This document shows, in pieces, positions 440-56,014 of a stretch of DNA of 56,014 nt; position 1 is the first letter of the stretch; every line of letters starts with the position of its first letter. The stretch spans positions 1-56,014 of IMG/VR virus record IMGVR_UViG_3300049046_000063; one strand, written 5' to 3'. Under the pieces are notes generated by a model. That model worked only from the letters and a program-made list of their open reading frames with translations. It had not been told where the DNA came from and did not search any database. A program made the position numbers and the translations under genes. This DNA is from a virus. Its lineage: Duplodnaviria; Caudoviricetes.

Positions 440-697
440 TTAGCTGAAGTGGCCTTTGAATCGATCTTCAAACTGGCGTCGGAGCTTATCCATATCGACG
501 TTGATCCGGAGGCGCTCTGATGGTGCGCTCGTCACTTCTTGCGTGTCTGCGTCGCGCCCCTTCGCTCTCTGCGCTGCGATCTCAGCCTGATCCCATGAGT
601 GACCATTGCCGCAGATAGAAAGCTTCTTCCCGGCGCTGTAGCGATGCGTTGATTCTGGTCTACCGCAGTCTGGTTTTGGACAGTTATTCTCTTCCAC
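440..697 (-). CDS. Hypothetical protein, possible Zn-binding
   Basis: CPKPDC and CGNGH motifs; GAGGTAGGAG RBS upstream. Confidence 0.55.
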   Translation of the reverse strand: MEENNCPKPDCGRPESTHRYSAGKKLSICGNGHSWDQAEIAAQRAKGRDADTQEVTSAPSERLRINVDMDKLRRQFEDRFKGHFS

Positions 698-3837: not shown

Positions 3838-4102
3838 AATCTGGATGCTGAATCTGGCAGTAAGAACGTGAGACTTTCAGGAAGTGCTTGTTTTTGGCAT
3901 GAGCCGAGCAGGACTCGAACCTGCGACCCACTGGTTAAAAGCACTTGACGCGCTTTTGTGACACCGTCAGACAGCGCGTGACAGATTACCGATTCAGCCC
4001 AATTTTCCGCGGATAAAACACGCCTCATTATAGCAGCCGTTGTGACATCACGGGACATTGATATACCATCCTGATTCTCACAAATCTGGCAGTTGAATCT
4101 GG
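3838..4102. mobile_element. attP: attP region with putative arm-type and Xis-type sites
   Basis: AATCTGG pairs spaced 13 bp apart on both sides of the core (3838/3851 and 4083/4096); GACA-containing hexamers phased at 10 bp (3958/3968/3978 and 4042/4052). Confidence 0.7.
3900..3941 (-). tRNA. 3' half of tRNA-Lys(UUU), the attP core (not a full tRNA gene)
   Basis: Minus strand reads CTTTTAA (anticodon loop) CCAGTGGGTC GCAGG TTCGAGT CCTGC (T-arm) TCGGCTCA; no 5' half present. Confidence 0.85.
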
Positions 4103-4106
4103 ATGT

Positions 4107-5228
4107 ATGCCCCGAGCTCGCACTGGAAGTTTTTGGTATGACCGCAACGGCGATCTGTATGCGCGCGTAACCTGGACCGACTCTAAGGGGAAGGTGCGCG
4201 AGAAACGCAGGAAGTCGATCAGCGGCACGAAGCGCGAGGCGCGCGAGCACATAAAGGAAATTCTCGAAGAGATCGAAGAGCAGGGCGATCAGGCAATCGA
4301 CGCCGCCGGTCTCACCTTCAAACAACTGGTCGACCACTACAAAAACAACTACGCGATCGAGGCTGAATACGATCGCAAGGGAATTAAGACTGCAGGAATG
4401 CGTTCGTGGAAAGATGCGCGCCGAAAGGCTGAGGCCTTGCTTGATTACTTTGGCCCAAAGAAGCGCGTTCGAGATTTTACCTATGGCGACCTCTCGCGAT
4501 TCAAAGCCGCGCGCATTAGAACTCCAAAGCGAACCGGCGGCGCGCGTCAGATCGCCAGCGTTCATCGGGAGCTCGAAATCCTCAGACGAATGTTTCGCAT
4601 TGCTGTTCAAAGCAGATGGTTGCGGCTCAGCCCGTTCAATGAAGGAGATCCACTGATTGAGCAGGCCGAAGAGCACCAGCGCGAGCGCATCGCGACGAAG
4701 GAAGAAGAAAGCGCCTTGCTCGCAGCCTGCGACGAAGACGAACGCCGCAAGCACCTCAGGCCGTTTTTGATCCTGGCCTTCGATACCGGCTTTCGACCGA
4801 TTGAAATGAAGTCGCTCACGGTCAAAGATGTCGACTTTGAAGATAACTGTATTTGGGCCGTGTCCTACAAAGGCAAGCGCATGAAACGCCGGCCGTTCGA
4901 CATGACCGCGCGCCTGCGAACGGAAATGCAAAAACTCTGCGCGGGGAAAAGACCCGGCCAACTGGTATTTGGATTCAAGTCCGTGAAGCGATCCTTTGCG
5001 ACCGCCAAACGCGTTGCGGCAGAGAGAGGCATTGACATGAAAGGCTTTCGCCTGTACGACGCGCGCCACACGGCGACTACGCGACTGGTGCGCCGGGGAA
5101 TGAGTCTCGAAGAAACTGGAAAGCTGATGGGCCATTCTCAACCTAAAACCACCTGGCGTTACATGCACGTCGACAAGTCGCGTCGGCGCCGCGCGGCTGA
5201 ATTGCTCGAGCAGGAAGATGAAGATTAA
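4107..5228 (+). CDS. int: Tyrosine integrase
   Basis: DTGFR (R), K, YDARH (H/Y-x-x-R), LMGH and TWRY catalytic residues; adjacent to a tRNA-derived att core. Confidence 0.95.
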   Translation: MPRARTGSFWYDRNGDLYARVTWTDSKGKVREKRRKSISGTKREAREHIKEILEEIEEQGDQAIDAAGLTFKQLVDHYKNNYAIEAEYDRKGIKTAGMRSWKDARRKAEALLDYFGPKKRVRDFTYGDLSRFKAARIRTPKRTGGARQIASVHRELEILRRMFRIAVQSRWLRLSPFNEGDPLIEQAEEHQRERIATKEEESALLAACDEDERRKHLRPFLILAFDTGFRPIEMKSLTVKDVDFEDNCIWAVSYKGKRMKRRPFDMTARLRTEMQKLCAGKRPGQLVFGFKSVKRSFATAKRVAAERGIDMKGFRLYDARHTATTRLVRRGMSLEETGKLMGHSQPKTTWRYMHVDKSRRRRAAELLEQEDED

Positions 5229-10704: not shown

Positions 10705-11486
10705 TAAAAGAATTCAATTCGATGGCAGTCCCAAAGCCTCGTCATTATCGAGTTGCCCCACACTTCATCTATGCGGCCCCAGTGCGAGCGCAGTTTTTCC
10801 GCGTCGAAGTTGCTTGTTATTACGAGCTGGTGACCAAACGATTTCGCGGCATCAAGAAGATTGAATAATTGCTCTGAAGCAAACTCACTCGGACGCGCCT
10901 TTTCGAATTCATCAAGAAAGATCAGCCAGGGCTTTCCCTGTTTTCTTAAATCAATCGCTCGTACTCGCGGCGTCCATGGATCGCCTTCTTTGATCGATAG
11001 TTCCAGGCGCCGGAATTCATCAAGTAGATCGCGCACACTTGAAGCTACGGCTGGACGTCGAGACGCGAGCGCGTGGCGGTAGATGGCCCAAGCAATATGA
11101 CTCTTTCCTGATCCGTTCCTGCCGGTGAATAGATAAGATTCATCTGGTTTATTTCTAACTAAATCGATGGCTGCCGCCTGCTTGTGATGGTGTGCGGAAC
11201 TCGGTTTCAACCTTCCAAGTCGCGGCATCCCGAACACCGGAGGAATTACAGATAGTTGGGCTTGAATGGTTTTCCTGCGAACGCACAGACAACGCTCCGA
11301 AGCTTTGGCGGCTTTAGCGTTTTCAAGACTTAACTCGCGGATGAATTCGCCCGTCTCCGCGTCGCGAAGCCTCATGCCGGTTCCGTAGCACCGCCAACAA
11401 TTAGCGGACGACCGATTTTGATTTGAATTCGTAAACTCCGGCGCCTGCTCTTGAGCCCGGCGGAGTATTTTGCTGATAGCTTCCAT
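10704..11486 (-). CDS. DnaC/IstB-like ATPase (helicase loader)
   Basis: Walker A GRNGSGKS, Walker B LIFLDE, ITSN, N-terminal Cys motifs. Confidence 0.9.
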   Translation of the reverse strand: MEAISKILRRAQEQAPEFTNSNQNRSSANCWRCYGTGMRLRDAETGEFIRELSLENAKAAKASERCLCVRRKTIQAQLSVIPPVFGMPRLGRLKPSSAHHHKQAAAIDLVRNKPDESYLFTGRNGSGKSHIAWAIYRHALASRRPAVASSVRDLLDEFRRLELSIKEGDPWTPRVRAIDLRKQGKPWLIFLDEFEKARPSEFASEQLFNLLDAAKSFGHQLVITSNFDAEKLRSHWGRIDEVWGNSIMTRLWDCHRIEFF

Positions 11487-12231
11487 TCCCGTTCCCCATT
11501 GGCGGATCTTCGTTGTTGAGCCAGTAGATGAGCCGATTTTGTGTTGCTTGCTTGCCCTTGCGGTGACAGTGGACCAACATCTTGTTGTAAACGTTCCGCA
11601 CGTTCAGGTGTTTGTAGGCCTCGTTGGACTGCATCTCGGCTATGAACTCATCGTCACAGACTCTCTTGCGCGGTTGGCGCGCGGTCACGCGCGCTTCACT
11701 GCTTTTCTGTGATTTGTGATCTGTGTTTTGTGTATTGTGGTTTGTAGATCTCTGATCTGTGATCTGTGCATGCAATTGCATTGCATTTGCATCTACATTT
11801 GCAGTGCTTTTGCTGTGCAATTGCACCTGCATTTGCAGATCGTTTGCTGCAATAATACGTTCACCTTCGACCTTCTCTTCTTCGGCTATGCCTTCTGAGT
11901 TGGTCACTTCGGATTTTCCGTATCGTGTGCGAGCTGCGGTTGATCGAACGGCTGAAATCTCCTTCGCTTTCGCGATCTCTTGATCGGCACGCTTCTGATG
12001 CCAGCCGTCTGATTGTTCGTTGAAAAACTGAGTGAGTACGTTTCTGACCGCGCCTTGCTCTTCCGGTGTGAACGCGCGACATATTCGGTAGAGGGCCAGG
12101 TCGTCGAGCGGGAGCGCCTTTCGCTTGGCGTAGTAGTAATCCAATAGCCGGTTGTATGCTCCGTTTTCCATGAGCGATAAATGCTGAGTGTCGCGGTCGT
12201 AGTCGTCCATGAAACGTGGATACCAGTGCAT
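11401..12231 (-). CDS. Replication initiator (DUF1376/YdaU-like)
   Basis: WYPR...DY..DT.HLS..E.GAY.RLLDYYY; internal repeats; upstream of the DnaC-like gene. Confidence 0.88.
   Translation of the reverse strand: MHWYPRFMDDYDRDTQHLSLMENGAYNRLLDYYYAKRKALPLDDLALYRICRAFTPEEQGAVRNVLTQFFNEQSDGWHQKRADQEIAKAKEISAVRSTAARTRYGKSEVTNSEGIAEEEKVEGERIIAANDLQMQVQLHSKSTANVDANAMQLHAQITDQRSTNHNTQNTDHKSQKSSEARVTARQPRKRVCDDEFIAEMQSNEAYKHLNVRNVYNKMLVHCHRKGKQATQNRLIYWLNNEDPPMGNGNGSYQQNTPPGSRAGAGVYEFKSKSVVR
11705..11852. repeat. Putative replication origin (iterons) inside the initiator gene
   Basis: Dense TTTGCA/TGCAATTGCA repeats at ~11766-11852 next to ~7-bp GATCTGT-type repeats at ~11705-11767, as in lambda O-type origins. 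Confidence 0.65.
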
Positions 12232-12510: not shown

Positions 12511-13392
12511 TCAATCCTTGTATTCCGAAAGCGCGTCTTTTAGCTGGACCAACTCATCAAGATTGAGAGCATTAATATCTCGCCCGCCGGTCTGCTTCTC
12601 GATTTGGGCCTCCGTGAACATGTCTTTGATCGACCCGCGGAGCTTCTTCTTTTCCGCTTTTTCATCGATCACGGCAGGCTCTACCACCGCGCTCTGTGTT
12701 GATTCAGAGGAAGCGGCTTCAGTCTCAATAATCTCCGCTTCCACAACCGCAGGATGGTGTTGTAGTTGTGCGGCCATCCGCTCAGCCTTCGATTGCTGAC
12801 CGTTCGCTGGTCCAAGCGGAACGCCCTCAGTTTCCGCGATCCTCTCTGCTTCGTCAGGGTCGTAAATCCCAGCTAGGCCAAAAGCCACGCGTGCGCACTG
12901 AATTAACGCTTTATGTCGCAGCATCCGTGCAGGCCACTTGGTCCACGGCTCCGTGTTGCGCGCGCACTCACTCATGTATTCGGTGACTTTGGTAGGGTGA
13001 GCGCGATCTTTGCGATAGATGACCGCTGTCACACCGCGTAGCTCGCCAGCGTCGTTGAATTGGTCGTTGAACTCAATACCGTCTAAAGCCGTCTGCCGAT
13101 TGATAAGAGTGCTCCATCCGTCAATCGAGACAATCGGGACAATGCCACCGCCCTTCGCCGGGAACGCGTAGATCTCTTTAATGAACGGATTGAGATCGTA
13201 TTGCTTGGCAACCGCCAGGAACGCGGCAACCTGTTCGTTGCTGGGGTTTTGTTTGTCCGAAGGGAAAACCGTTTTAATAAGAGTACTCAGAAACTTTGTG
13301 GGCTCAAGGCCGTGACGGTTTGCCATGAAACCTATCAGCGATGTTCCCGCTACTACCGCAGGCTTTGTTTCCGCGGGTGCTGGTGTTGTCAT
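12511..13392 (-). CDS. bet: Bet/RecT-family ssDNA annealing protein
   Basis: LNPFIKEIYAFP..GGGIVPIVSIDGW and W...P.RMLRHKALIQCAR.AFG. Confidence 0.95.
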   Translation of the reverse strand: MTTPAPAETKPAVVAGTSLIGFMANRHGLEPTKFLSTLIKTVFPSDKQNPSNEQVAAFLAVAKQYDLNPFIKEIYAFPAKGGGIVPIVSIDGWSTLINRQTALDGIEFNDQFNDAGELRGVTAVIYRKDRAHPTKVTEYMSECARNTEPWTKWPARMLRHKALIQCARVAFGLAGIYDPDEAERIAETEGVPLGPANGQQSKAERMAAQLQHHPAVVEAEIIETEAASSESTQSAVVEPAVIDEKAEKKKLRGSIKDMFTEAQIEKQTGGRDINALNLDELVQLKDALSEYKD

Positions 13393-15285: not shown

Positions 15286-15459
15286 TTAGGCTGCTTTTGC
15301 CAGTTCTGGATAACGCCTTGCCAGCTTTGAAAGCTTTTCCTCGATTGCCTTTCGGACAAACTCGGAAGCGGGCACTTCGAGAATTTCAGCGGCCCTTTCA
15401 AGCCGCTCCATTTGTTCGCTGCTGGCGCGTAGATGTAAGCGTGTGTCCTTTTTTCTCAT
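15286..15459 (-). CDS. Ribbon-helix-helix protein in the Cro position
   Basis: KDTRLHLRAS.EQMERLERAA..LEVP.SEFVRKAI matches the RHH pattern. Confidence 0.8.
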   Translation of the reverse strand: MRKKDTRLHLRASSEQMERLERAAEILEVPASEFVRKAIEEKLSKLARRYPELAKAA

Positions 15460-15475
15460 AACGTTTGCACGTTCA

Positions 15476-15578
15476 GTGTAAGTACAGCGGGAGTACATAT
15501 AGCACTGTGTACGTACACTGTCAACACCTATTTCCGAGAATTCATTGTTTTCTTCTGTGCGGTTGATGTAAGTACGAT
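15476..15578. promoter_or_regulatory. Divergent switch region: leftward promoter and TGTA(C/A)GTAC operators
   Basis: GTGTACGTACAC (15507-15518) lies between minus-strand TTGACA and TATATG, 17 bp apart; variants GTGTAAGTACAG (15476) and ATGTAAGTACGA (15567). Confidence 0.75.
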
Positions 15579-23330: not shown

Positions 23331-23639
23331 TTAGGCAGCACTAGCACCAGCAGCGGTTGTGCTGGCGGTTTTCTCCCAATGATCGAAATGACCTTCGTCA
23401 TTGAAATAGAGCGTGATGGGCGAGTGTCCATCCCAACCAGTGACCTTCTCACCGATGAACGAATCAAGCGGCATGTCTTCGTATCTCACTGTTGCCGTTG
23501 ATTGCGGAATGTCCTTTAGATTGCTGATCACCGATATCTGGGTGAGCTTGTCAGTGTCCTCATTGAACCTTCGCAGCAAACGATAGCCCTGCGTGATCTG
23601 GTCCACGGTGACGTTGACGGGAAGTAAATCAGGATTCAT
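23331..23639 (-). CDS. Counter-oriented hypothetical (moron-like) gene
   Basis: GAGG RBS; hairpin at ~23254-23288 between convergent genes. Confidence 0.6.
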   Translation of the reverse strand: MNPDLLPVNVTVDQITQGYRLLRRFNEDTDKLTQISVISNLKDIPQSTATVRYEDMPLDSFIGEKVTGWDGHSPITLYFNDEGHFDHWEKTASTTAAGASAA

Positions 23640-35198: not shown

Positions 35199-35771
35199 TC
35201 ACTCTCCAATAACCTCCGGCCAATCCATTGCTTCTACTTCCGCACTGATGCGGATGTCGTTCGCCATCTCGTATTGATCCGTCACGGTTACGCCGTGGGA
35301 CCGCAAGCGTTCGCCTGTGGCGCGGCAGATAACTATCCGACCGTCATGGCGAGCGATAATCGCAAGGCCATGCTCTGCACACCAATCATTGATTTGTGAA
35401 TGCTCCCAGCCCGCGAACGCGTTCGACAGATCGGCTGAGCATCGATCAGTTTCTCCGTGCAGTATGACGTCGCTCAGAATTTCAGCGCGATAGGCGGCGG
35501 GAAAATCCCACTTGCATTCTGGCGCTACGTATTCGTCAGGCATCTGTAACCTATCCCGTTAGAATTAAGTATCATCCCAACAACGGCAAGTTGGATCTTT
35601 CGAGCCACAATAGCGGCAATACTCCGCAAACAAGTCTGCGCGCTGGTCATCGGATAGACGCTCTAATGATGATCGGGCTGTTTGGAGGGCATCCACACAG
35701 TTGCAGGTCATTTCGCTGTCGCATCGCGCGCATCTCATCGCCTCGCATTCTACCTGAATCCAATAAATCAC
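35199..35771 (-). CDS. Two hypothetical genes (35199-35543, 35565-35771)
   Basis: Co-oriented with the counter-strand island. Confidence 0.5.
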
Positions 35772-40236: not shown

Positions 40237-40656
40237 ATGGGCCACGAAGCAGCAGCCGCAAAACTCGCAGTCGAAGCAGTGTTGCCGGGCACCTTCTTTG
40301 AGTCGGCGCCACAAAACGCCGGAGTGCCGTTCAAGGTCTGCCGACAGCGCAGTCCGGGCACGGACTCACAGGTTATTGGCGGCGTCCGCGCCATGACCTC
40401 TCCGCTTGTCGATGTTGGTATCTGGGTCGAATGGAATCCTTACTCAGATGTAGCGCAAGCCGGCGCAAAGGAAATTGACGACGCTATGGAGTCGCTCAGC
40501 AGTTACCAGGTGACCGACGCGAACGGAGATGTTTGGGAAGTCAGTTCACGAAGCGAAGGCGGCGCTTGGATCAGAGAAGAAGTGGATCTTAAAGCCGGTG
40601 GCAAGAAGTTCTATTGGGTAGGCAGAAGCTATCGCCTCTCAATTTCAGCAGCGTAA
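40237..40656 (+). CDS. Tail terminator
   Basis: Size and position after the gp10-like gene. Confidence 0.6.
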   Translation: MGHEAAAAKLAVEAVLPGTFFESAPQNAGVPFKVCRQRSPGTDSQVIGGVRAMTSPLVDVGIWVEWNPYSDVAQAGAKEIDDAMESLSSYQVTDANGDVWEVSSRSEGGAWIREEVDLKAGGKKFYWVGRSYRLSISAA

Positions 40657-51240: not shown

Positions 51241-52167
51241 GTGCACCTTCCAACTCCGATCGACATGATGCACTTGCCTGCTTTGCAACGAGCAGACGTA
51301 CAAGTGTTCACGACCGACAATCGAAACCTCAACTGGCAGTCATGGGTTAAACCGCGCGGGATTACAATGTGCTTCATGTTTGTCGTTTCTGGCGGTGGTG
51401 GTGGTGGTGGTGGTTGTACCAGGGTAGCAGGAAACGCGGGCGGCGGCGGTGGTGGTGGTGCTGGAGGTGCATCTACTCGACTGCTGCTCCCTGCATATTT
51501 CCTTCCGGATGAGTTATACATTCAGATCGGCCTTGGCGGTCCGGGCGGCGCTCCCGGCGCTCTCGCGGGTAACGGGACAAACGGCGGCGACACGGCAATC
51601 TCACTCGGACGTAGTAATGCGTCACCTAATGTCATCCTCGCCACAAACAGCGGCACGGCGGCCGGGGGAACCGGAGGTAATACCGGCGCAGGCGGCGGCG
51701 GTGGCAGTGCGCCATCAGCGCCAAACGCCACAGCTCGAGCAACGTGGGGCTTTGTAGGCTCAGTAGCGGGAATCGCTGGCGGAAGTGGCGGCGCTCAGAC
51801 CGGAGCGATAGGCTCTGCTGTTTCTACTGTTTGGAATGCAACATTGATTAGTGGCGGTGCTGGCGGTGCTGGCTGTACGTCGAGCGACTTCGCCGGCGGT
51901 GCAATTACACTTCAGGGAACACCGGACTTTTCGGCAACATCATTGACCGGCGGTGCAGCAGGCGGTGGCGATGGCAGTGCGGGAATTCAACTCTGGCAGC
52001 CGTTACTTATGACTGGTGGCTCGGGTGGTGGATCAAACAACTCTGGAGTCGCTGGGAACGGCGGCAAGGGTGGTATCGGCTGTGGCGGCGGTGGCGGTGG
52101 CGCGGGAGCCACTGGCGGTCGCGGAGGCGATGGCGGCAACGGAATGGCCGTAATTATTAGCTGGTAA
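51241..52167 (+). CDS. Glycine-rich tail fibre-associated protein
   Basis: W.KP.G.......GGGGGGGG and terminal GG.GG.G...IISW. Confidence 0.75.
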   Translation: MHLPTPIDMMHLPALQRADVQVFTTDNRNLNWQSWVKPRGITMCFMFVVSGGGGGGGGCTRVAGNAGGGGGGGAGGASTRLLLPAYFLPDELYIQIGLGGPGGAPGALAGNGTNGGDTAISLGRSNASPNVILATNSGTAAGGTGGNTGAGGGGGSAPSAPNATARATWGFVGSVAGIAGGSGGAQTGAIGSAVSTVWNATLISGGAGGAGCTSSDFAGGAITLQGTPDFSATSLTGGAAGGGDGSAGIQLWQPLLMTGGSGGGSNNSGVAGNGGKGGIGCGGGGGGAGATGGRGGDGGNGMAVIISW

Positions 52168-52302
52168 TTAAAACTCGCGCCCACTCCCCCAAACCATGCG
52201 GCATGTCCCGGAGATAGGCTCAATGCAGATAAGCCATATAAAAAGGACAAGCTTCAACCCGCAGACTTGAAAAGTGGGCGCGGCGCGAGAGCGAGAGCGG
52301 CG

Positions 52303-52464
52303 CTAGCTTGCGTTAGTAGCGTTTAGCAGACGGGTAACGAGATTCGCCCCCCAAGTGCTCTGACTTCCATAAACAGCGATTGCCACAACTGCAATCAATC
52401 CGGCAATCATCGCGTACTCGAGGGTCTCCATGCCGCTCTCATCCTGTAAGAATTTCTTGATCAT
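52303..52464 (-). CDS. flp: Flp (type IVc/Tad) pilin 2 (not in ORF track)
   Basis: MIKKFLQDESG^METLEYAMIAGLIAVVAIAVYGSQSTWGANLVTRLLNATNAS has the G^xxxxEY prepilin motif. Confidence 0.9.
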   Translation of the reverse strand: MIKKFLQDESGMETLEYAMIAGLIAVVAIAVYGSQSTWGANLVTRLLNATNAS

Positions 52465-52516
52465 GATCCACTTTCTCTCTTTCTGAAATTGAGTTAAACC
52501 GAGTGGGAAGCGTTAG

Positions 52517-52532
52517 AGCAACGATCATGCCA
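52517..52532 (-). promoter_or_regulatory. Sigma54 -24/-12 promoter upstream of pilin 2
   Basis: TGGCATGATCGTTGCT matches TGGCAC-N5-TTGCW with correct GG-N10-GC spacing. Confidence 0.75.
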
Positions 52533-52618
52533 TGTGGAAATACCCAGGAAAATGCAGAGTCGCGCAAGCCCTGCTCAGGGATGGTGAGCGCCAGCGAGCA
52601 GTTGTTGTAATTCGCCGC

Positions 52619-52650
52619 AAAAAGGCGGTCAACCGAAGCTGACCGCCTTA
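52619..52650 (-). terminator. Intrinsic terminator after pilin 1
   Basis: AAGGCGGTCA...TGACCGCCTT stem with a T-run on the minus strand. Confidence 0.75.
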
Positions 52651-52679
52651 GCCCAAACGGACGCACAACGCCCAGGGAT

Positions 52680-52874
52680 TTATAACCCGGCCCCGCTTAT
52701 GTCCGCGCTCGCCGCGCTCACGAGCTTGTCCTTAATCGCTTGGCCCCAGCCGCTACCGTAAACCGCAACGGCCACGATCGCGACGATCCCCGCGATAATC
52801 GCGTACTCAATTGTCTCAATTCCCGACTCGTCTTTAAGGAAGACAGTGATTGGTCGTAGTATGTGTTTAGACAT
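52680..52874 (-). CDS. flp: Flp (type IVc/Tad) pilin 1
   Basis: FLKDESG^IETIEYAIIAGIVAIVAVAV; AGGAG RBS. Confidence 0.92.
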   Translation of the reverse strand: MSKHILRPITVFLKDESGIETIEYAIIAGIVAIVAVAVYGSGWGQAIKDKLVSAASADISGAGL

Positions 52875-52953
52875 CTTTCTTCTCCTATTCAGAAGTTGGT
52901 GTTTAGGCTCGGTAGGGTGTTGATAGCACCTTGGCGGGCCGCTTTATTGAACG

Positions 52954-53000
52954 ATGCCAATGGTATCAAACTATACCAATGGCGTCAAGCGTGTTATTAT
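52954..53000. promoter_or_regulatory. Divergent pilin 1 and XRE promoters with two operators
   Basis: Minus-strand TTGACG(52988-52983)-17bp-TACCAT; plus-strand extended -10 TGnTATTAT; quasi-palindromes ATGCCAATGGTAT (52954) and ATACCAATGGCGT (52973). Confidence 0.75.
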
Positions 53001-53006
53001 CGCCGC

Positions 53007-53192
53007 GTGGATGGAGACGAACTCAAAGCCTTTCGCGCCAAGGTTGAGATCACGCAGCAGGAATTAGCTGAAGCTCTTGGTGTTGACCGGAACACTATCG
53101 CTCGGTGGGAGCGTAACGAGCGGGCAATCCCGCCCTTTCTTCACTTGGCTCTTCAAACTCTCGAACGACAGAAGAAGTCCTCCAAAAAGTAA
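53007..53192 (+). CDS. XRE-family HTH regulator (probably leaderless GTG start)
   Basis: LK.FR....ITQQELAEALGVDRNTIARWER. Confidence 0.88.
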   Translation: MDGDELKAFRAKVEITQQELAEALGVDRNTIARWERNERAIPPFLHLALQTLERQKKSSKK

Positions 53193-53407
53193 AGACCGCC
53201 AGCCCCGACGCTGACGGTCTCAAAGGATTTCCACCCGGTAACGAAGGATTCACTTTTTCTTGCCTGTCGGCTTTGCTTTCGCCTTCGGCTTTGTAGTGGT
53301 CTTCGTTGACAGTGTCTGAATTCTGTGTGTATGCTGCGCCTAGTTATTTGAAGGCAGGGCGGGCATCGTTCCTTGCCAGTCATGAACAGATGGACCACGC
53401 ACCAACG

Positions 53408-53793
53408 GATGCGCATCGCAACGGCGAATGCGAACTAGATCAGACGATCCCGGCTCTAGGCAGTATAAGCCATCTCTAGGTAGCAATAGGCGTCTCCAGA
53501 TAACATCTAGACATTGTCTAGACAAGTTTTTTCTAGATTTTTCTAGAAAATCTTTACGCGCACAAGTGTATATCTGTATACACTTTAGCGTTCGCTACGC
53601 CGAACAGAGGCCGTTAGCATTGCTAACAATGTGCGCACGTTTTAGTTGACAAAGGTGTCCTTTAAGGATACTTAAGGTGCTTAAGGTTGCAACCAAACGC
53701 AATCAGATGCAACCAAATGCAACTTGGCGCAATCTATCGCAACTTGCGACAAGTTGTCGCAATCTGCGGCAACCTTGCTGCGAGTCGCAGCAA
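53408..53793. repeat. Non-coding array of diverse palindromes and phased direct repeats
   Basis: TCTAGA x4, AAGTGTATA-N4-TATACACTT, GTTAGCA-T-TGCTAAC, GTGCGCAC, TTAAGG x3, GCAA every 10 bp (8 of 9 units exact). Confidence 0.85.
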
Positions 53794-53817
53794 ATGGGTA
53801 GCAACAAGACTTTTGAC

Positions 53818-53851
53818 AAAAGAAAGGGGCCGGTCTTAAAGACCCGACCCC
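53818..53851 (-). terminator. Intrinsic terminator after the small peptide gene
   Basis: GGGGTCGGGTCTTTAAGACCGGCCCC followed by TTTCTTTT. Confidence 0.75.
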
Positions 53852-53873
53852 AGCATGATGTAGGGCCGAAGCC

Positions 53874-53954
53874 CTATATCGGAACCAACAGGATGGCGAT
53901 CACTCCGTCCGTAACGTAGATGATCATCACCCAGCCTCGTGGAACGTAACGCAT
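53874..53954 (-). CDS. 26-aa hydrophobic peptide, type I toxin-like (not in ORF track)
   Basis: AAGGAGGT RBS; MRYVPRGWVMIIYVTDGVIAILLVPI; structured leader. Confidence 0.65.
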   Translation of the reverse strand: MRYVPRGWVMIIYVTDGVIAILLVPI

Positions 53955-54134
53955 AGACGTTACCTCCTTTTCAAGATACGCCTCAAGTTGCTGGTAACAA
54001 CTTGGGGCGTTTCCCGTTTACATAGCAAACGGAAACCTTGTGGGGAGCGAAGACACCCCGTTGTGAGAACGCAGAGATACTAACACGCGCTAAAGAGCGT
54101 ATTGCAAGCGGAAACCGTTTTACAAAGAACTTTT

Positions 54135-54317
54135 TTATTTCGCTCGCGCTTTCTTTGATTGGCCTTTAACTCTCGCCCAGCGCGCCTTGACAGCGTTTCT
54201 AGCGCTCTCACTACGTTCTTCTGCGGTCATGCTGGCCGCTCTCGCAGGCCCGCCCTTCAAACCGCCTCTACGCCCTAAAGCCACAGCGGCAGGGTTCTTC
54301 TTTTGTATGTTCGGCAT
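54135..54317 (-). CDS. Small basic KNPAAVALGRRGGLKGG protein, probable regulator of the adjacent DDE gene
   Basis: KGG-like motif; divergent from the transposase; ATG lies 6 nt after a -10 box (leaderless). Confidence 0.75.
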   Translation of the reverse strand: MPNIQKKNPAAVALGRRGGLKGGPARAASMTAEERSESARNAVKARWARVKGQSKKARAK

Positions 54318-54323
54318 GCGCTG

Positions 54324-54399
54324 AATATACGTGACCGCTCACGAAAAGTCTACCGCTATTTGCTTGACGATACGTGAGCGGTCACGTATAATCGTGAGC
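54324..54399. promoter_or_regulatory. Back-to-back promoters, each with a CGTGA(G/C)CG(G/C)TCACG operator in its spacer
   Basis: Plus strand TTGACG(54364)-17-TATAAT(54387); minus strand TAGACT-17-TATATT; operators at 54330-54343 and 54373-54386. Confidence 0.82.
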
Positions 54400-54519
54400 A
54401 TTGAAAAGGCCCTACCAGCGCTAACTGATAAGGCCCCTTTGAAAACAAACGCGATTGCTCACGTCTGAGTCCAAGCAGCCTGATTTTGAGCCAATCGCCC
54501 ACGAAAGGCAAGGCTCAAA

Positions 54520-55470
54520 ATGACCTGTCACAACTGCAAGATTGCTGCCGCCAAGTTTGGCAAAGACCGCTACGGTAATCAGCGTTACAAGTGCAAGCAA
54601 TGTCGAAAGACGTTTCAGGAAATCAAAGACAAGATGCTGGGCACGATGTATCTGCCCGAAGCAAAGGCGCTCATGGTCCTACACATGCTTGTCGAGGGTA
54701 ATTCTATCCGCTCAATCGAGCGTCTGACTGGCGTCAACCGAAACACGATTATGAGTTTGTTGGTACTCGCCGGTGAGAAGTGCGAGCGCGTAATGGATAC
54801 CTATCTCCGCAAGGTTCACGTTCAAGACGTACAGGCAGATGAGATCTGGAACTTTGTCGGCATGAAAGAAAAGACGAAAGTGCGCAAGGGTTACGCCAGC
54901 GACTATCTAGGCGACGCATACACCTATGTCGCCTTCGAGCGAAACACTAAACTCGTAATTACTTGGCACCTTGGCCGACGCACAGCCGCTCATACCTTCG
55001 CATTTACTGAGAAGCTATTTAACGCCGTGGACGGAACGACTAATCGCTTTCAGATGACAACCGATGGTCTAGCAAGCTATCCCGACGCGATCAACTGCTC
55101 GCTAGGAATGCGAACGGACTACGCGACTTTGGTCAAAGTTTACGGCGCGCCCGAAGATGACGATCACAAATACTCGCCCAGCAAGATTAAGGAAATAATA
55201 CCAACGCCCTTTTGGGGCAATCCTAATCCTGAAAAAATCTGCACGTCGCACGTTGAAAGGCAGAACCTCAATATCAGAATGGCAATGCGTAGATTCACGC
55301 GGCTGACTAATGGCTTTTCTAAGAAGTGGGAAAATCTGAAAGCTGCGCTCGCGCTATACTTCGCGTACTACAATTTTTGCCGCATTCATTCGAGTATCCG
55401 TTGCACTCCGGCAATGGAAAGCGGAATCACAAAAAGTGTGTGGACGTTGAAAGACTTGCTCGCCGCATAA
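54520..55470 (+). CDS. IS1-family DDE transposase, single ORF
   Basis: Zn ribbon CHNC..QRY.CKQC, HTH EGNSIRSIERL, DE.W / TDG / VER.N triad, RRFTRLTNGFSK. Confidence 0.9.
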   Translation: MTCHNCKIAAAKFGKDRYGNQRYKCKQCRKTFQEIKDKMLGTMYLPEAKALMVLHMLVEGNSIRSIERLTGVNRNTIMSLLVLAGEKCERVMDTYLRKVHVQDVQADEIWNFVGMKEKTKVRKGYASDYLGDAYTYVAFERNTKLVITWHLGRRTAAHTFAFTEKLFNAVDGTTNRFQMTTDGLASYPDAINCSLGMRTDYATLVKVYGAPEDDDHKYSPSKIKEIIPTPFWGNPNPEKICTSHVERQNLNIRMAMRRFTRLTNGFSKKWENLKAALALYFAYYNFCRIHSSIRCTPAMESGITKSVWTLKDLLAA

Positions 55471-55475
55471 AACCA

Positions 55476-55498
55476 AAGGGCCGACGAATCGGCCCTTT
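55476..55498. terminator. Hairpin between convergent genes
   Basis: AAAGGGCCGA-CGAA-TCGGCCCTTT. Confidence 0.7.
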
Positions 55499-55529
55499 CG
55501 GTTATCTCACTTCCAGTAACTAAGCGCTA

Positions 55530-55841
55530 TCAAAACTTGATGCCAAACTTCTTTAGCGCCTCTTCCTCTTCAAGTGTAAGTTTGCCGCCGACTACCTTAT
55601 GGTACATGTCGTGACATACTCCGTGAAACTCCGTATACGGAAACAAAATCTCAACGGCAAGAGCAAGTGCCGCCATAGCTTCGTCAATCATACGTGGCTC
55701 AACTCCGATGTGGCTCGCCAAGATCGTCAAGTTGATCGCGAGTTGAAGTGCTTCGCTGGGATGGCCTTTGTATGCGTCAAAGGCAATTTCCCAGTCTTCA
55801 TTATCTAGTGGTGGATTTCCAATGTTAGGATGATTTGGCAT
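55530..55841 (-). CDS. Hypothetical helical protein
   Basis: GAAAGGA RBS before MPNHP; leader hairpin at 55886-55917. Confidence 0.65.
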   Translation of the reverse strand: MPNHPNIGNPPLDNEDWEIAFDAYKGHPSEALQLAINLTILASHIGVEPRMIDEAMAALALAVEILFPYTEFHGVCHDMYHKVVGGKLTLEEEEALKKFGIKF

Positions 55842-55886
55842 GGTCGATTCCTTTCTGCTTAACGGTAGTAGGATTCGGCTGTGTAG

Positions 55887-56012
55887 GGCTGGCAAGTGCG
55901 CAAACACTTGTCGGCCCGCTCCGAAGTGGAGCGCATCCTAACACCGAAGAGACAGAGGGAAACCGACAAAGAGGCGTCAACACAGAATTAAGCCACTATC
56001 TCTTCGTTCCCT
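55887..56012. repeat. Direct terminal repeat, right copy
   Basis: Identical to 1-126. Confidence 0.9.
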
Positions 56013-56014
56013 AC

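Follow-up and report, generated by a model that had tools for sequence, protein, structure and literature searches.

A palindrome-rich non-coding stretch with an iteron-like array in a temperate soil phage: a possible accessory origin-like or initiator-titrating site

Towards the right end of a 56,014-base virus record of soil origin in IMG/VR (the whole of which is called the window here) lies a stretch of about 520 bp that is non-coding and crowded with palindromes and short repeats. It includes an array of GCAAY units at an exact 10-bp period, and the core of these units recurs inside the phage's own DUF1376 gene, where a second array probably marks the replication origin. The stretch is missing from both relatives used for comparison, namely G001, a complete 70-kb phage that is syntenic with the window at about 70–85% identity (87% in the initiator), and L242, a metagenome contig that served as the second relative at the junction. 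From these comparisons we tentatively suggest that the stretch is an accessory origin-like or initiator-titrating site, a reading that still has a good chance of being wrong.

Palindromes and repeat families

Palindrome centres were counted with loops of up to 4 nt in the 386 bp at 53408–53793, with 1000 dinucleotide shuffles as the null. There are 18 centres with arms of at least 5 bp, 11 with arms of at least 6, 7 with at least 7 and 5 with at least 8, against shuffle means of 1.95, 0.46, 0.12 and 0.04, and none of the 1000 shuffles reached the observed value at any arm length. Within the phage, 3 of 1113 sliding windows reach the observed counts at each arm length. The top-ranked windows all overlap the stretch, starting between about 53200 and 53700, and five of the phage's eight palindromes with arms of at least 8 bp fall inside 53408–53793. 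By the same count (arms of at least 6), the gap between the origin of transfer (oriT) and stbA in plasmid R46 has 2 palindromes per 386 bp, with a plasmid-wide maximum of 4, while the maximum is 3 in the 10 kb that surround the telomere site of phage N15 and also 3 in the whole genome of G001, which thus lacks a palindrome cluster.

An earlier note, made from the letters of this DNA alone, had described it as some 390 bp of abutting, unrelated palindromes and helically phased repeats. Every motif that it listed is indeed there, and the crowding that it pointed out stands up against shuffled DNA (11 centres against a mean of 0.46, 0/1000). It had also seen no credible gene, and this agrees with our scan of 88 small open reading frames (ORFs): none of the 8 that overlap 53153–53919 has a Pfam family, and reading TAG as glutamine opens no credible frame in the stretch, so that a recoded gene was rejected as well. 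The stretch is no assembly artefact, since contigs from two other soil runs are identical to the window over 53342–54467. One X2 contig (depth 2, side 34) joins 53682 to 53818, which would drop the GCAA array, but such weak evidence does not establish a variant.

Most of the palindromes fall into three repeat families, TCTAGR, TTAAGG and GCAAY, and about five stand alone. The family members arise from TCTAGA repeats (53506–53550), from TTAAGG/CCTT (53651–53685) and from GCAA/TTGC (53685–53793). The word "unrelated" is therefore right for five palindromes (at 53408, 53564, 53586, 53613 and 53631) and wrong for most, and helical phasing holds for GCAA at exactly 10 bp, whereas that of the seven CTAG sites is not significant (P = 0.19) and the TTAAGG copies are spaced 10 and 9 bp. 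From left to right, the stretch and its borders comprise:

53192–53221, minus strand: intrinsic terminator of the leftward operon, ancestral and outside the inserted module (12-bp stem, then a T run; kept in G001 and L242)
53250–53311, minus strand: remnant of a small lysine-rich ORF whose start codon is lost (an intact 27-amino-acid ORF in G001)
53306–53335, plus strand: predicted sigma-70-like promoter, TTGACA / 18 nt / TATGCT, pointing rightward into the stretch (10 of 12 consensus positions)
53408–53417, no strand: stand-alone palindrome GATGCGCATC
53435–53550, no strand: CTAG cluster of seven CTAG (six TCTAGR and one ACTAGA), with palindromes at 53506–53522, 53514–53525 and 53529–53550
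53517–53556, no strand: most AT-rich 40-mer of the 56-kb genome (77.5% A+T), a candidate unwinding element
53564–53585 (9-4-9), 53586–53597 (5-2-5), 53613–53627 (7-1-7) and 53631–53638 (GTGCGCAC), no strand: four stand-alone perfect palindromes
53647–53688, no strand: TTAAGG repeats, with copies at 53662, 53672 and 53681 and palindromes at 53651–53663, 53658–53668 and 53671–53685
53685–53805, plus strand: iteron-like GCAAY array, eight GCAA and one ACAA at an exact 10-bp period (53689–53772)
53826–53850, minus strand: terminator hairpin of the small neighbouring gene, the right boundary of the stretch (a U run follows the hairpin in the fold of 54072–53810)

The seven CTAG lie at 53435–53543, within 112 bp, with an eighth at 53340, in a phage that has 31 copies where about 217 are expected from base composition (a roughly 7-fold depletion). 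Four of the phage's five TCTAGA are in the CTAG cluster and two of its three CTTAAG in the stretch, leaving one of each elsewhere against about 12 expected for each. TTAAGG has 12 copies in the phage, or 0.11 expected per 491 bp, against three here, and weak promoter-like hexamers in both directions overlap this block (by our own reading, below the threshold of the promoter tool). The 8-mer GTGCGCAC is found one more time in the phage, at 12891; the longer stand-alone palindromes have no match elsewhere in it with up to 3 mismatches. The segment at 53517–53556 is the single A+T maximum (the fraction of windows reaching its value is 1.8e-5) and lies 135 bp from the GCAAY array. In the array, GCAA starts at 53689, 53699, 53709, 53719, 53729, 53739, 53759 and 53769 and ACAA at 53749, with further GCAA at 53790 and 53801, and TTGC/GCAA palindromes are embedded at 53685–53694, 53744–53762 and 53775–53793. 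Palindromes that are perfect and sharply bounded, together with an array of exact 10-bp period, argue for sites on double-stranded DNA.

The GCAAY array and the presumed replication origin

All 252 non-homopolymer 4-mers were scanned over the whole 56 kb for chains of at least 5 sites at 10–12 bp spacing. Only two chains exist in the genome, GCAA at 53689–53739 (6 consecutive sites) and TTGC at 11776–11844 (7 sites). They are reverse complements of one another, and thus the same core on opposite strands. A TTGC chain of at least 4 was found in 0/100 shuffles. The second chain is as follows:

11776–11847, plus strand: counterpart array of seven TTGC, spaced 11, 12, 11, 11, 12 and 11 bp, inside the DUF1376 gene (11401–12231, minus strand)

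On the coding strand of the DUF1376 gene its units read about TGCAA(A/T)TGCA. The array lies where this gene encodes a low-complexity linker, just upstream of the gene for a DnaC-like loader, and it is conserved in G001 (6 GCAA at 40434–40490). Eight DUF1376 genes, including that of the window, were compared. In five of them (the window, G001, the Vibrio phage L226 at 23365–23575, the Rhizobium phage L228 with units GCAAATGCA at 1219–1252, and the Moraxella phage L230 at 1279–1336) at least three internal repeats are spaced at 11 bp or multiples of it, just past the domain-coding part. A lambda-type origin sits inside the initiator gene, and the counterpart array is placed likewise, in the linker-coding part of an initiator gene; by this analogy with lambda O, it is probably a replication origin embedded in the gene of its own initiator. 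A second block, of GATC-containing repeats, is found at 11700–11770 in the window.

Insertion boundary and neighbouring genes

In G001 and L242, a small zinc-finger gene (the homologue of window 440–697) is directly followed by the 27-amino-acid lysine-rich ORF and the terminator. Homology to the window spans the terminator (53192–53221) and continues to about 53311, breaking off after GTTGAC, which puts the left breakpoint of the insertion at about 53311/53312. The remnant of the lysine-rich ORF reads ...STKTTTKPKAKAKPTGKKK*, and between the preceding in-frame stop and this peptide ATG, GTG and TTG are all absent. From 53312 to the zinc-finger gene there is roughly 3 kb of extra DNA, missing at this junction from both relatives. 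It holds, in order, the palindrome stretch, a 26-amino-acid ORF (minus strand), a 60-amino-acid gene with its own promoter and operators, an IS1-family transposase and two small ORFs. Because homology to the relatives stops at about 53311, the stretch forms the left edge of an accessory insertion specific to this lineage.

The nearest gene on the right is the following:

53874–53954, minus strand: gene of a 26-amino-acid hydrophobic peptide, with a strong Shine-Dalgarno sequence (mRNA folding z = −5.5)

Its Shine-Dalgarno sequence, AAGGAGGT, sits within a hairpin of an mRNA that runs on the minus strand from about 54070 to 53815. In its sequence the gene is like those of type I toxins, and it is best called a candidate for such a toxin, carried as a moron. 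Two RNA-library contigs, 53707–54053 (X20) and 53849–54052 (X21), cover it with no differences from the window. Such metatranscriptome contigs are strandless, DNA may occur in RNA libraries, and the parts of the stretch that they leave uncovered are not thereby proven silent. Further right, a strong promoter (TTGACG / 17 nt / TATAAT, 54324–54400) stands beside the dyad pair ACGTGACCGCTCACG / ACGTGAGCGGTCACGT near the 60-amino-acid gene (54135–54317, minus strand), and a homologous gene in L171 has a promoter and dyad layout of the same kind (3900–4000). The transposase gene of the insertion, at 54520–55470 (plus strand), encodes an N-terminal zinc ribbon. In other soil runs, depth rises 5–10-fold from 55427 on, and therefore the 103/125-amino-acid gene beside the insertion sequence (IS) is common in soil.

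Could the hairpins and repeats belong to RNA? They might form one or more non-coding transcripts: an RNA that acts as antisense or antitoxin, or a long extension at the 3' end, in either case tied to the toxin-like gene, or else a small RNA started by the promoter at 53306. The X20 contig does run 110 nt beyond the terminator of the toxin-like gene, into the GCAA array, and the mRNA of this neighbour is itself hairpin-rich (z = −5.5). In addition, 53678–53860 (plus strand) folds at z = −4.8, the promoter at 53306–53335 agrees with the consensus at 10 of 12 positions, and terminator-like hairpins occur on the plus strand at 53506–53532, with a T run, and at 53946–53963. However, 53340–53535 (plus strand) folds like its shuffles (z = −0.66), and complementarity to the toxin mRNA leader is at chance, with 12/30 and 8/30 shuffles equal or better. 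The X20 and X21 contigs have no strand, and such libraries may include DNA. An Rfam search of 52000–56014 gave one weak match, outside the stretch: an R1162-like plasmid antisense RNA at 52867–52941 (minus strand; 32.8 bits against a gathering score of 55, E = 0.0057), upstream of the second of two pilin genes and probably due to chance. Sites on double-stranded DNA, and not RNA, are what one would recognise in perfect, sharply bounded palindromes with 0–1 nt in the loop and in a period of exactly 10 bp. RNA may have a role at the right end of the stretch, but this would leave the exact period unexplained; as an account of the stretch as a whole we regard RNA as unlikely.

It is considerably less likely that the stretch is a control region for the neighbouring accessory genes, a set of operators and promoters for local regulators that would set the expression of the toxin-like gene or of the morons. 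The gene to the left (52863–53192) encodes an Xre-type helix-turn-helix (HTH) protein that resembles the HTH domain of MqsA (TIGR03830, E = 2.6e-10, below cut-off; Pfam MqsA_antitoxin, E = 8e-4) and could act on AAGG(T)/CCTT sites. The binding site of MqsA is AACCT-N3-AGGTT (PMC4894380). The segment 53651–53694 has CCTT-T-AAGG, three TTAAGG and GGTTGCAACC, but the half-sites are arranged unlike the MqsA palindrome. Promoter-like elements face one another across the stretch, yet about 520 bp with roughly 20 sites is far beyond the need of a small operon. Moreover, one contig of run X3 joins 52523 to 53191, lacking 52524–53190 and with it the HTH gene and the second pilin gene, and nevertheless runs on into the DNA on the right. 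Because this contig lacks the HTH gene and the ancestral terminator lies between, the HTH gene and the stretch are separate acquisitions. The two Flp/Fap pilin genes (Pfam PF04964, above cut-off) are at 52303–52464 and 52680–52874 (minus strand), just past the tail genes.

An accessory site for a replication initiator

If the stretch is an accessory origin-like or initiator-titrating site, it would be a cis-acting DNA platform that binds several proteins and was gained as part of the accessory insertion, on the plan of a replication origin of the iteron type or of an incompatibility locus. With its nine units at exactly 10 bp and two more, the GCAAY array would imitate the TGCAA iterons of the phage's own DUF1376 gene, and the DUF1376 initiator or a close homologue would bind it. 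The AT-rich 40-mer, several unique palindromes and promoter-like elements adjoin the array, as they do in iteron origins. Two relatives replicate without the stretch, which is therefore not the essential origin; its absence from G001 and L242 and its start at a recombination breakpoint fit an accessory element.

What would such a site do? We infer one of two roles. As a sink or handcuffing partner for the initiator, the stretch might damp or block replication, whether of the phage itself or of related superinfecting phages that share its type of initiator, a possibility that we consider unlikely as it stands, and a role as auxiliary origin or replication enhancer seems somewhat less likely again. 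A more specific and improbable version is that of a non-coding pseudo-origin acquired as a moron, a bank of initiator- and operator-type sites in which the origin iterons of the phage's own family are mimicked as well. By sequestering or handcuffing initiators, and perhaps regulators, encoded by superinfecting relatives or co-resident elements, it would act in an integrating phage as a DNA-only determinant of exclusion or incompatibility.

Several observations weigh against assigning the stretch to the initiator. What is common to the two arrays is a core of 4–5 nt only: the units of the stretch are YGCAAY plus five unconserved bases, exactly 10 bp long and without the second TGCA, whereas the origin units are 11–12 bp. 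Local alignment of 53640–53830 with the origin array gives a score of 24, which 10 of 914 other genome windows reach; this fits an origin-like reading, but is only in the top 1% or so. Three of the eight DUF1376 genes lack 11-bp repeats, L227 having other spacings and L229 and L231 none. The stretch has at least three direct repeats about one helical turn apart and an adjacent AT-rich element, as an iteron locus should, but rather than adjoining the rep gene it is separated from the initiator gene by 14 kb of the circular map. It contains no DnaA box with up to one mismatch and no IHF consensus, by the motifs as generally known, and a limited search found no literature on DUF1376 origins. As neither a second array nor a palindrome cluster exists in G001, that relative lends no comparative support for a function. 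Finally, most of the finding consists of sites (the CTAG and TTAAGG families and the stand-alone palindromes) that lack a counterpart at the origin or elsewhere in the phage and that this model leaves unexplained.

Comparison with known systems

The closest precedents for an initiator-binding accessory site are the iteron clusters beyond the minimal origin in plasmid prophage P1 (incA) and plasmid F (incC). Like them, the stretch is non-coding and dispensable, has about nine helically phased copies of a presumed initiator core, and would act by titration or handcuffing. Theirs are full iterons beside the rep gene of a plasmid or plasmid prophage, whereas the stretch shares a 4–5-nt core only, is 14 kb from the initiator gene of an integrating phage and mixes its array with other repeats, and binding to it is predicted. 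The satellite phage P4 has, besides ori, the element crr, a second cluster of short initiator-binding repeats several kb off the origin that acts on replication in cis, as the stretch might; crr is essential and conserved with its replicon, while the stretch is missing from two relatives. In comparison with a lambda-type origin, the stretch has repeats, an AT-rich segment and palindromes in typical order, but it lies outside genes, its palindromes differ from one another and no host-factor boxes were found in it. DNA that acts by being bound rather than expressed is also exemplified by datA of E. coli and the anti-BstA element of BstA prophages, which illustrate that a DNA-binding protein can be kept in check by a short non-coding segment, through titration or in cis. 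Each of these targets one known protein; the binder of the stretch is putative.

Plasmids offer another source for such DNA. The stretch could be an oriT, or a centromere of the ParR/StbA type, captured from a plasmid together with the insertion and a toxin of plasmid-stabilising type, and either active or a remnant. In plasmid R388 the stbDRs are two sets of five 9-bp repeats with 2-nt spacing, around a promoter next to oriT (PMC3098194), and the architecture of the stretch resembles them. The stbDR-oriT regions of R388 and R46 are, like the stretch, about 400–500 bp of non-coding DNA with at least 10 direct repeats, one per helical turn, around a promoter, and with inverted repeats, and they form a multi-protein platform of the kind proposed here (PMC3098194). 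Similar 11-bp arrays surround a TTGACA in the oriT-stbA gap of R46. Direct and inverted repeats abound in oriTs (PMC4853378), and the stretch is similarly repeat-rich. The words GCGCAC, AAAGGTG and TTTAAGGA, from an oligonucleotide of the R388 nic region (Table 1 of PMC4814116), occur in the same order at 53633–53668, and a small toxin-like gene and an IS adjoin the stretch.

Against a plasmid-derived site, the nic core of R388 is absent from the stretch, and there is no sequence similarity to the R388/R46 regions. Alignment with the R46 oriT gap scores 19, where shuffles give 21.1 ± 2.3 and 178 of 200 do as well, and blastn found no match among 72,556 plasmids. The cognate stbA, relaxase and coupling genes are missing: no relaxase was found among 43 + 88 ORFs scanned against Pfam, a search for ParA gave nothing, and the sole ParB_N match, at 12.4 bits, is noise. 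The only hint of a transfer or partition gene is a weak NikA/CopG-like ribbon-helix-helix protein at 15286–15498, below the Pfam cut-offs. The neighbours of the stretch are the Xre HTH gene and the 26-amino-acid ORF, and not a pair of centromere-binding protein and NTPase. The phage integrates, and therefore needs no centromere. Palindrome density, too, is about five times higher in the stretch than in the R46 gap (11 against 2 per 386 bp, arms of at least 6). A plasmid-derived site is, on balance, improbable.

Searches for counterparts elsewhere

The earlier note had interpreted the stretch as a decoy that displays the operators of many foreign DNA-binding proteins (regulators of toxin-antitoxin (TA) and defence systems, repressors of rival elements) and titrates them as the phage replicates. 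Operator-sized perfect dyads are present at extreme density in gene-free DNA, with at least four types of half-site; they are used nowhere else in the phage and are located in an accessory insertion among morons. DNA titration loci are established for a replicon's own proteins, as in P1 incA and E. coli datA. However, the palindromes are unmatched, with 0–3 mismatches, in the fetched loci (1.6 Mb in all, for the most part environmental phage contigs, and with G001 among them), blastn of the stretch has no match in GenBank phages or PLSDB plasmids, and the exact 22-mer of one palindrome, the only one scanned in this way, is absent from IMG/VR and the JGI metagenomes. These searches covered the phage, the fetched loci and phage, plasmid and metagenome collections; host promoters were outside their scope. 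The lone motif with a counterpart, GCAA, points to the phage's own initiator, and the reduction of most palindromes to three repeat families leaves fewer distinct targets than proposed.

A sponge for many foreign regulators is thus unsupported, because no counterpart of its palindromes was found in any of these places, and is the least probable of the explanations weighed here. The part of the interpretation that survives is that of non-coding sites on double-stranded DNA. Titration might still apply, to the phage's own type of initiator, and the auxiliary origin that the note had listed among its alternatives fits the evidence better than the sponge, given that GCAA matches the presumed origin iterons.

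No homologue of the stretch was found by blastn against phages or plasmids, in 51 loci with distant relatives of the tail protein, or in 51 loci with relatives of the 60-amino-acid protein, which have in common with the window that gene and its promoter only. The HTH, 103- and 85-amino-acid proteins have no relatives in IMG/VR, and a search of genome contigs for homologues of the stretch gave one weak, irrelevant locus. The pattern of six GCAA-N6 occurs in at least 117 stretches of IMG/VR, 80 of which were fetched as loci; most are plain tandem repeats. Among the matches listed, fifteen loci come from a single phage lineage, for which no link to the present phage was seen. In this high-GC lineage, 6–13 degenerate 10-bp copies of TGCAAY, differing in number between contigs, are flanked by a sigma-70 region-4-like gene on one side and an HNH endonuclease gene on the other (L070, L084, L087, L094, L101, L102, L107, L108, L110, L114, L118, L121, L122, L123 and L127).

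A number of more familiar identities were considered and rejected. The stretch is not the phage attachment site (attP), since the integrase and a tRNA-derived core are elsewhere (3.9–5.2 kb), nor the centromere of a plasmid prophage, since the phage has an integrase. It has no match to a Xer/dif site. A protelomerase target was discarded because no protelomerase is present among the ORFs scanned against Pfam, and the tel region of N15 reaches a maximum of 3 palindromes. As a cluster of restriction sites it is unexceptional: its 491 bp have 11 6-bp palindromes, where other parts of the genome average 6.3 and reach at most 19, although TCTAGA and CTTAAG are concentrated in it. The motif of CII-type activators is TTGC-N6-TTGC, and 6 of its 11 matches in the genome are in the stretch; the lone other intergenic match, at 35616, has no fitting −10 element, and Pfam gave no CII-like protein.

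The phage genome

Bases 1–125 of the record recur at 55887–56011, exactly over 125 bases, with the last 3 letters alone differing. The record is labelled linear and 65% complete, but because of this recurrence it is in effect a closed circle, probably a circular genome of about 55.9 kb. Its gene content is that of a temperate siphovirus-type phage. Replication and recombination genes (RusA, a methyltransferase, the DnaC-like loader, the DUF1376 "primosomal" protein and RecT/RecE) occupy the minus strand at 1–15 kb, a LexA/UmuD-like S24 protein is encoded at 15.8 kb, and the late genes are on the plus strand as far as the end of the tail fibre at 52167. Integration features are as follows:

4107–5228, plus strand: tyrosine integrase (79.8 bits in a six-frame family search)
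about 3895–3945, minus strand: tRNA 3'-end fragment adjoining the integrase, likely the attP core

The integrase ORF is masked by a spurious 684-amino-acid ORF on the opposite (minus) strand. The tRNA-derived core could reveal the host.

Biological significance

Should the sites of the stretch bind unrelated proteins rather than the initiator, they would constitute a compact natural set of high-affinity operators whose binders could be fished out directly. If, on the other hand, the GCAAY array binds the DUF1376 initiator, then an iteron-style control or incompatibility locus is carried as accessory DNA by an integrating phage. To our knowledge, and within a limited check of the literature, such loci have been described for plasmids and plasmid prophages, and not for lambdoid-type phages. 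The stretch would then offer a testable case of phage–phage competition, or of replication control, exerted via DNA sites alone, and it would indicate where the DUF1376 initiators, which are widespread but unstudied, have their origin and which motif they recognise.

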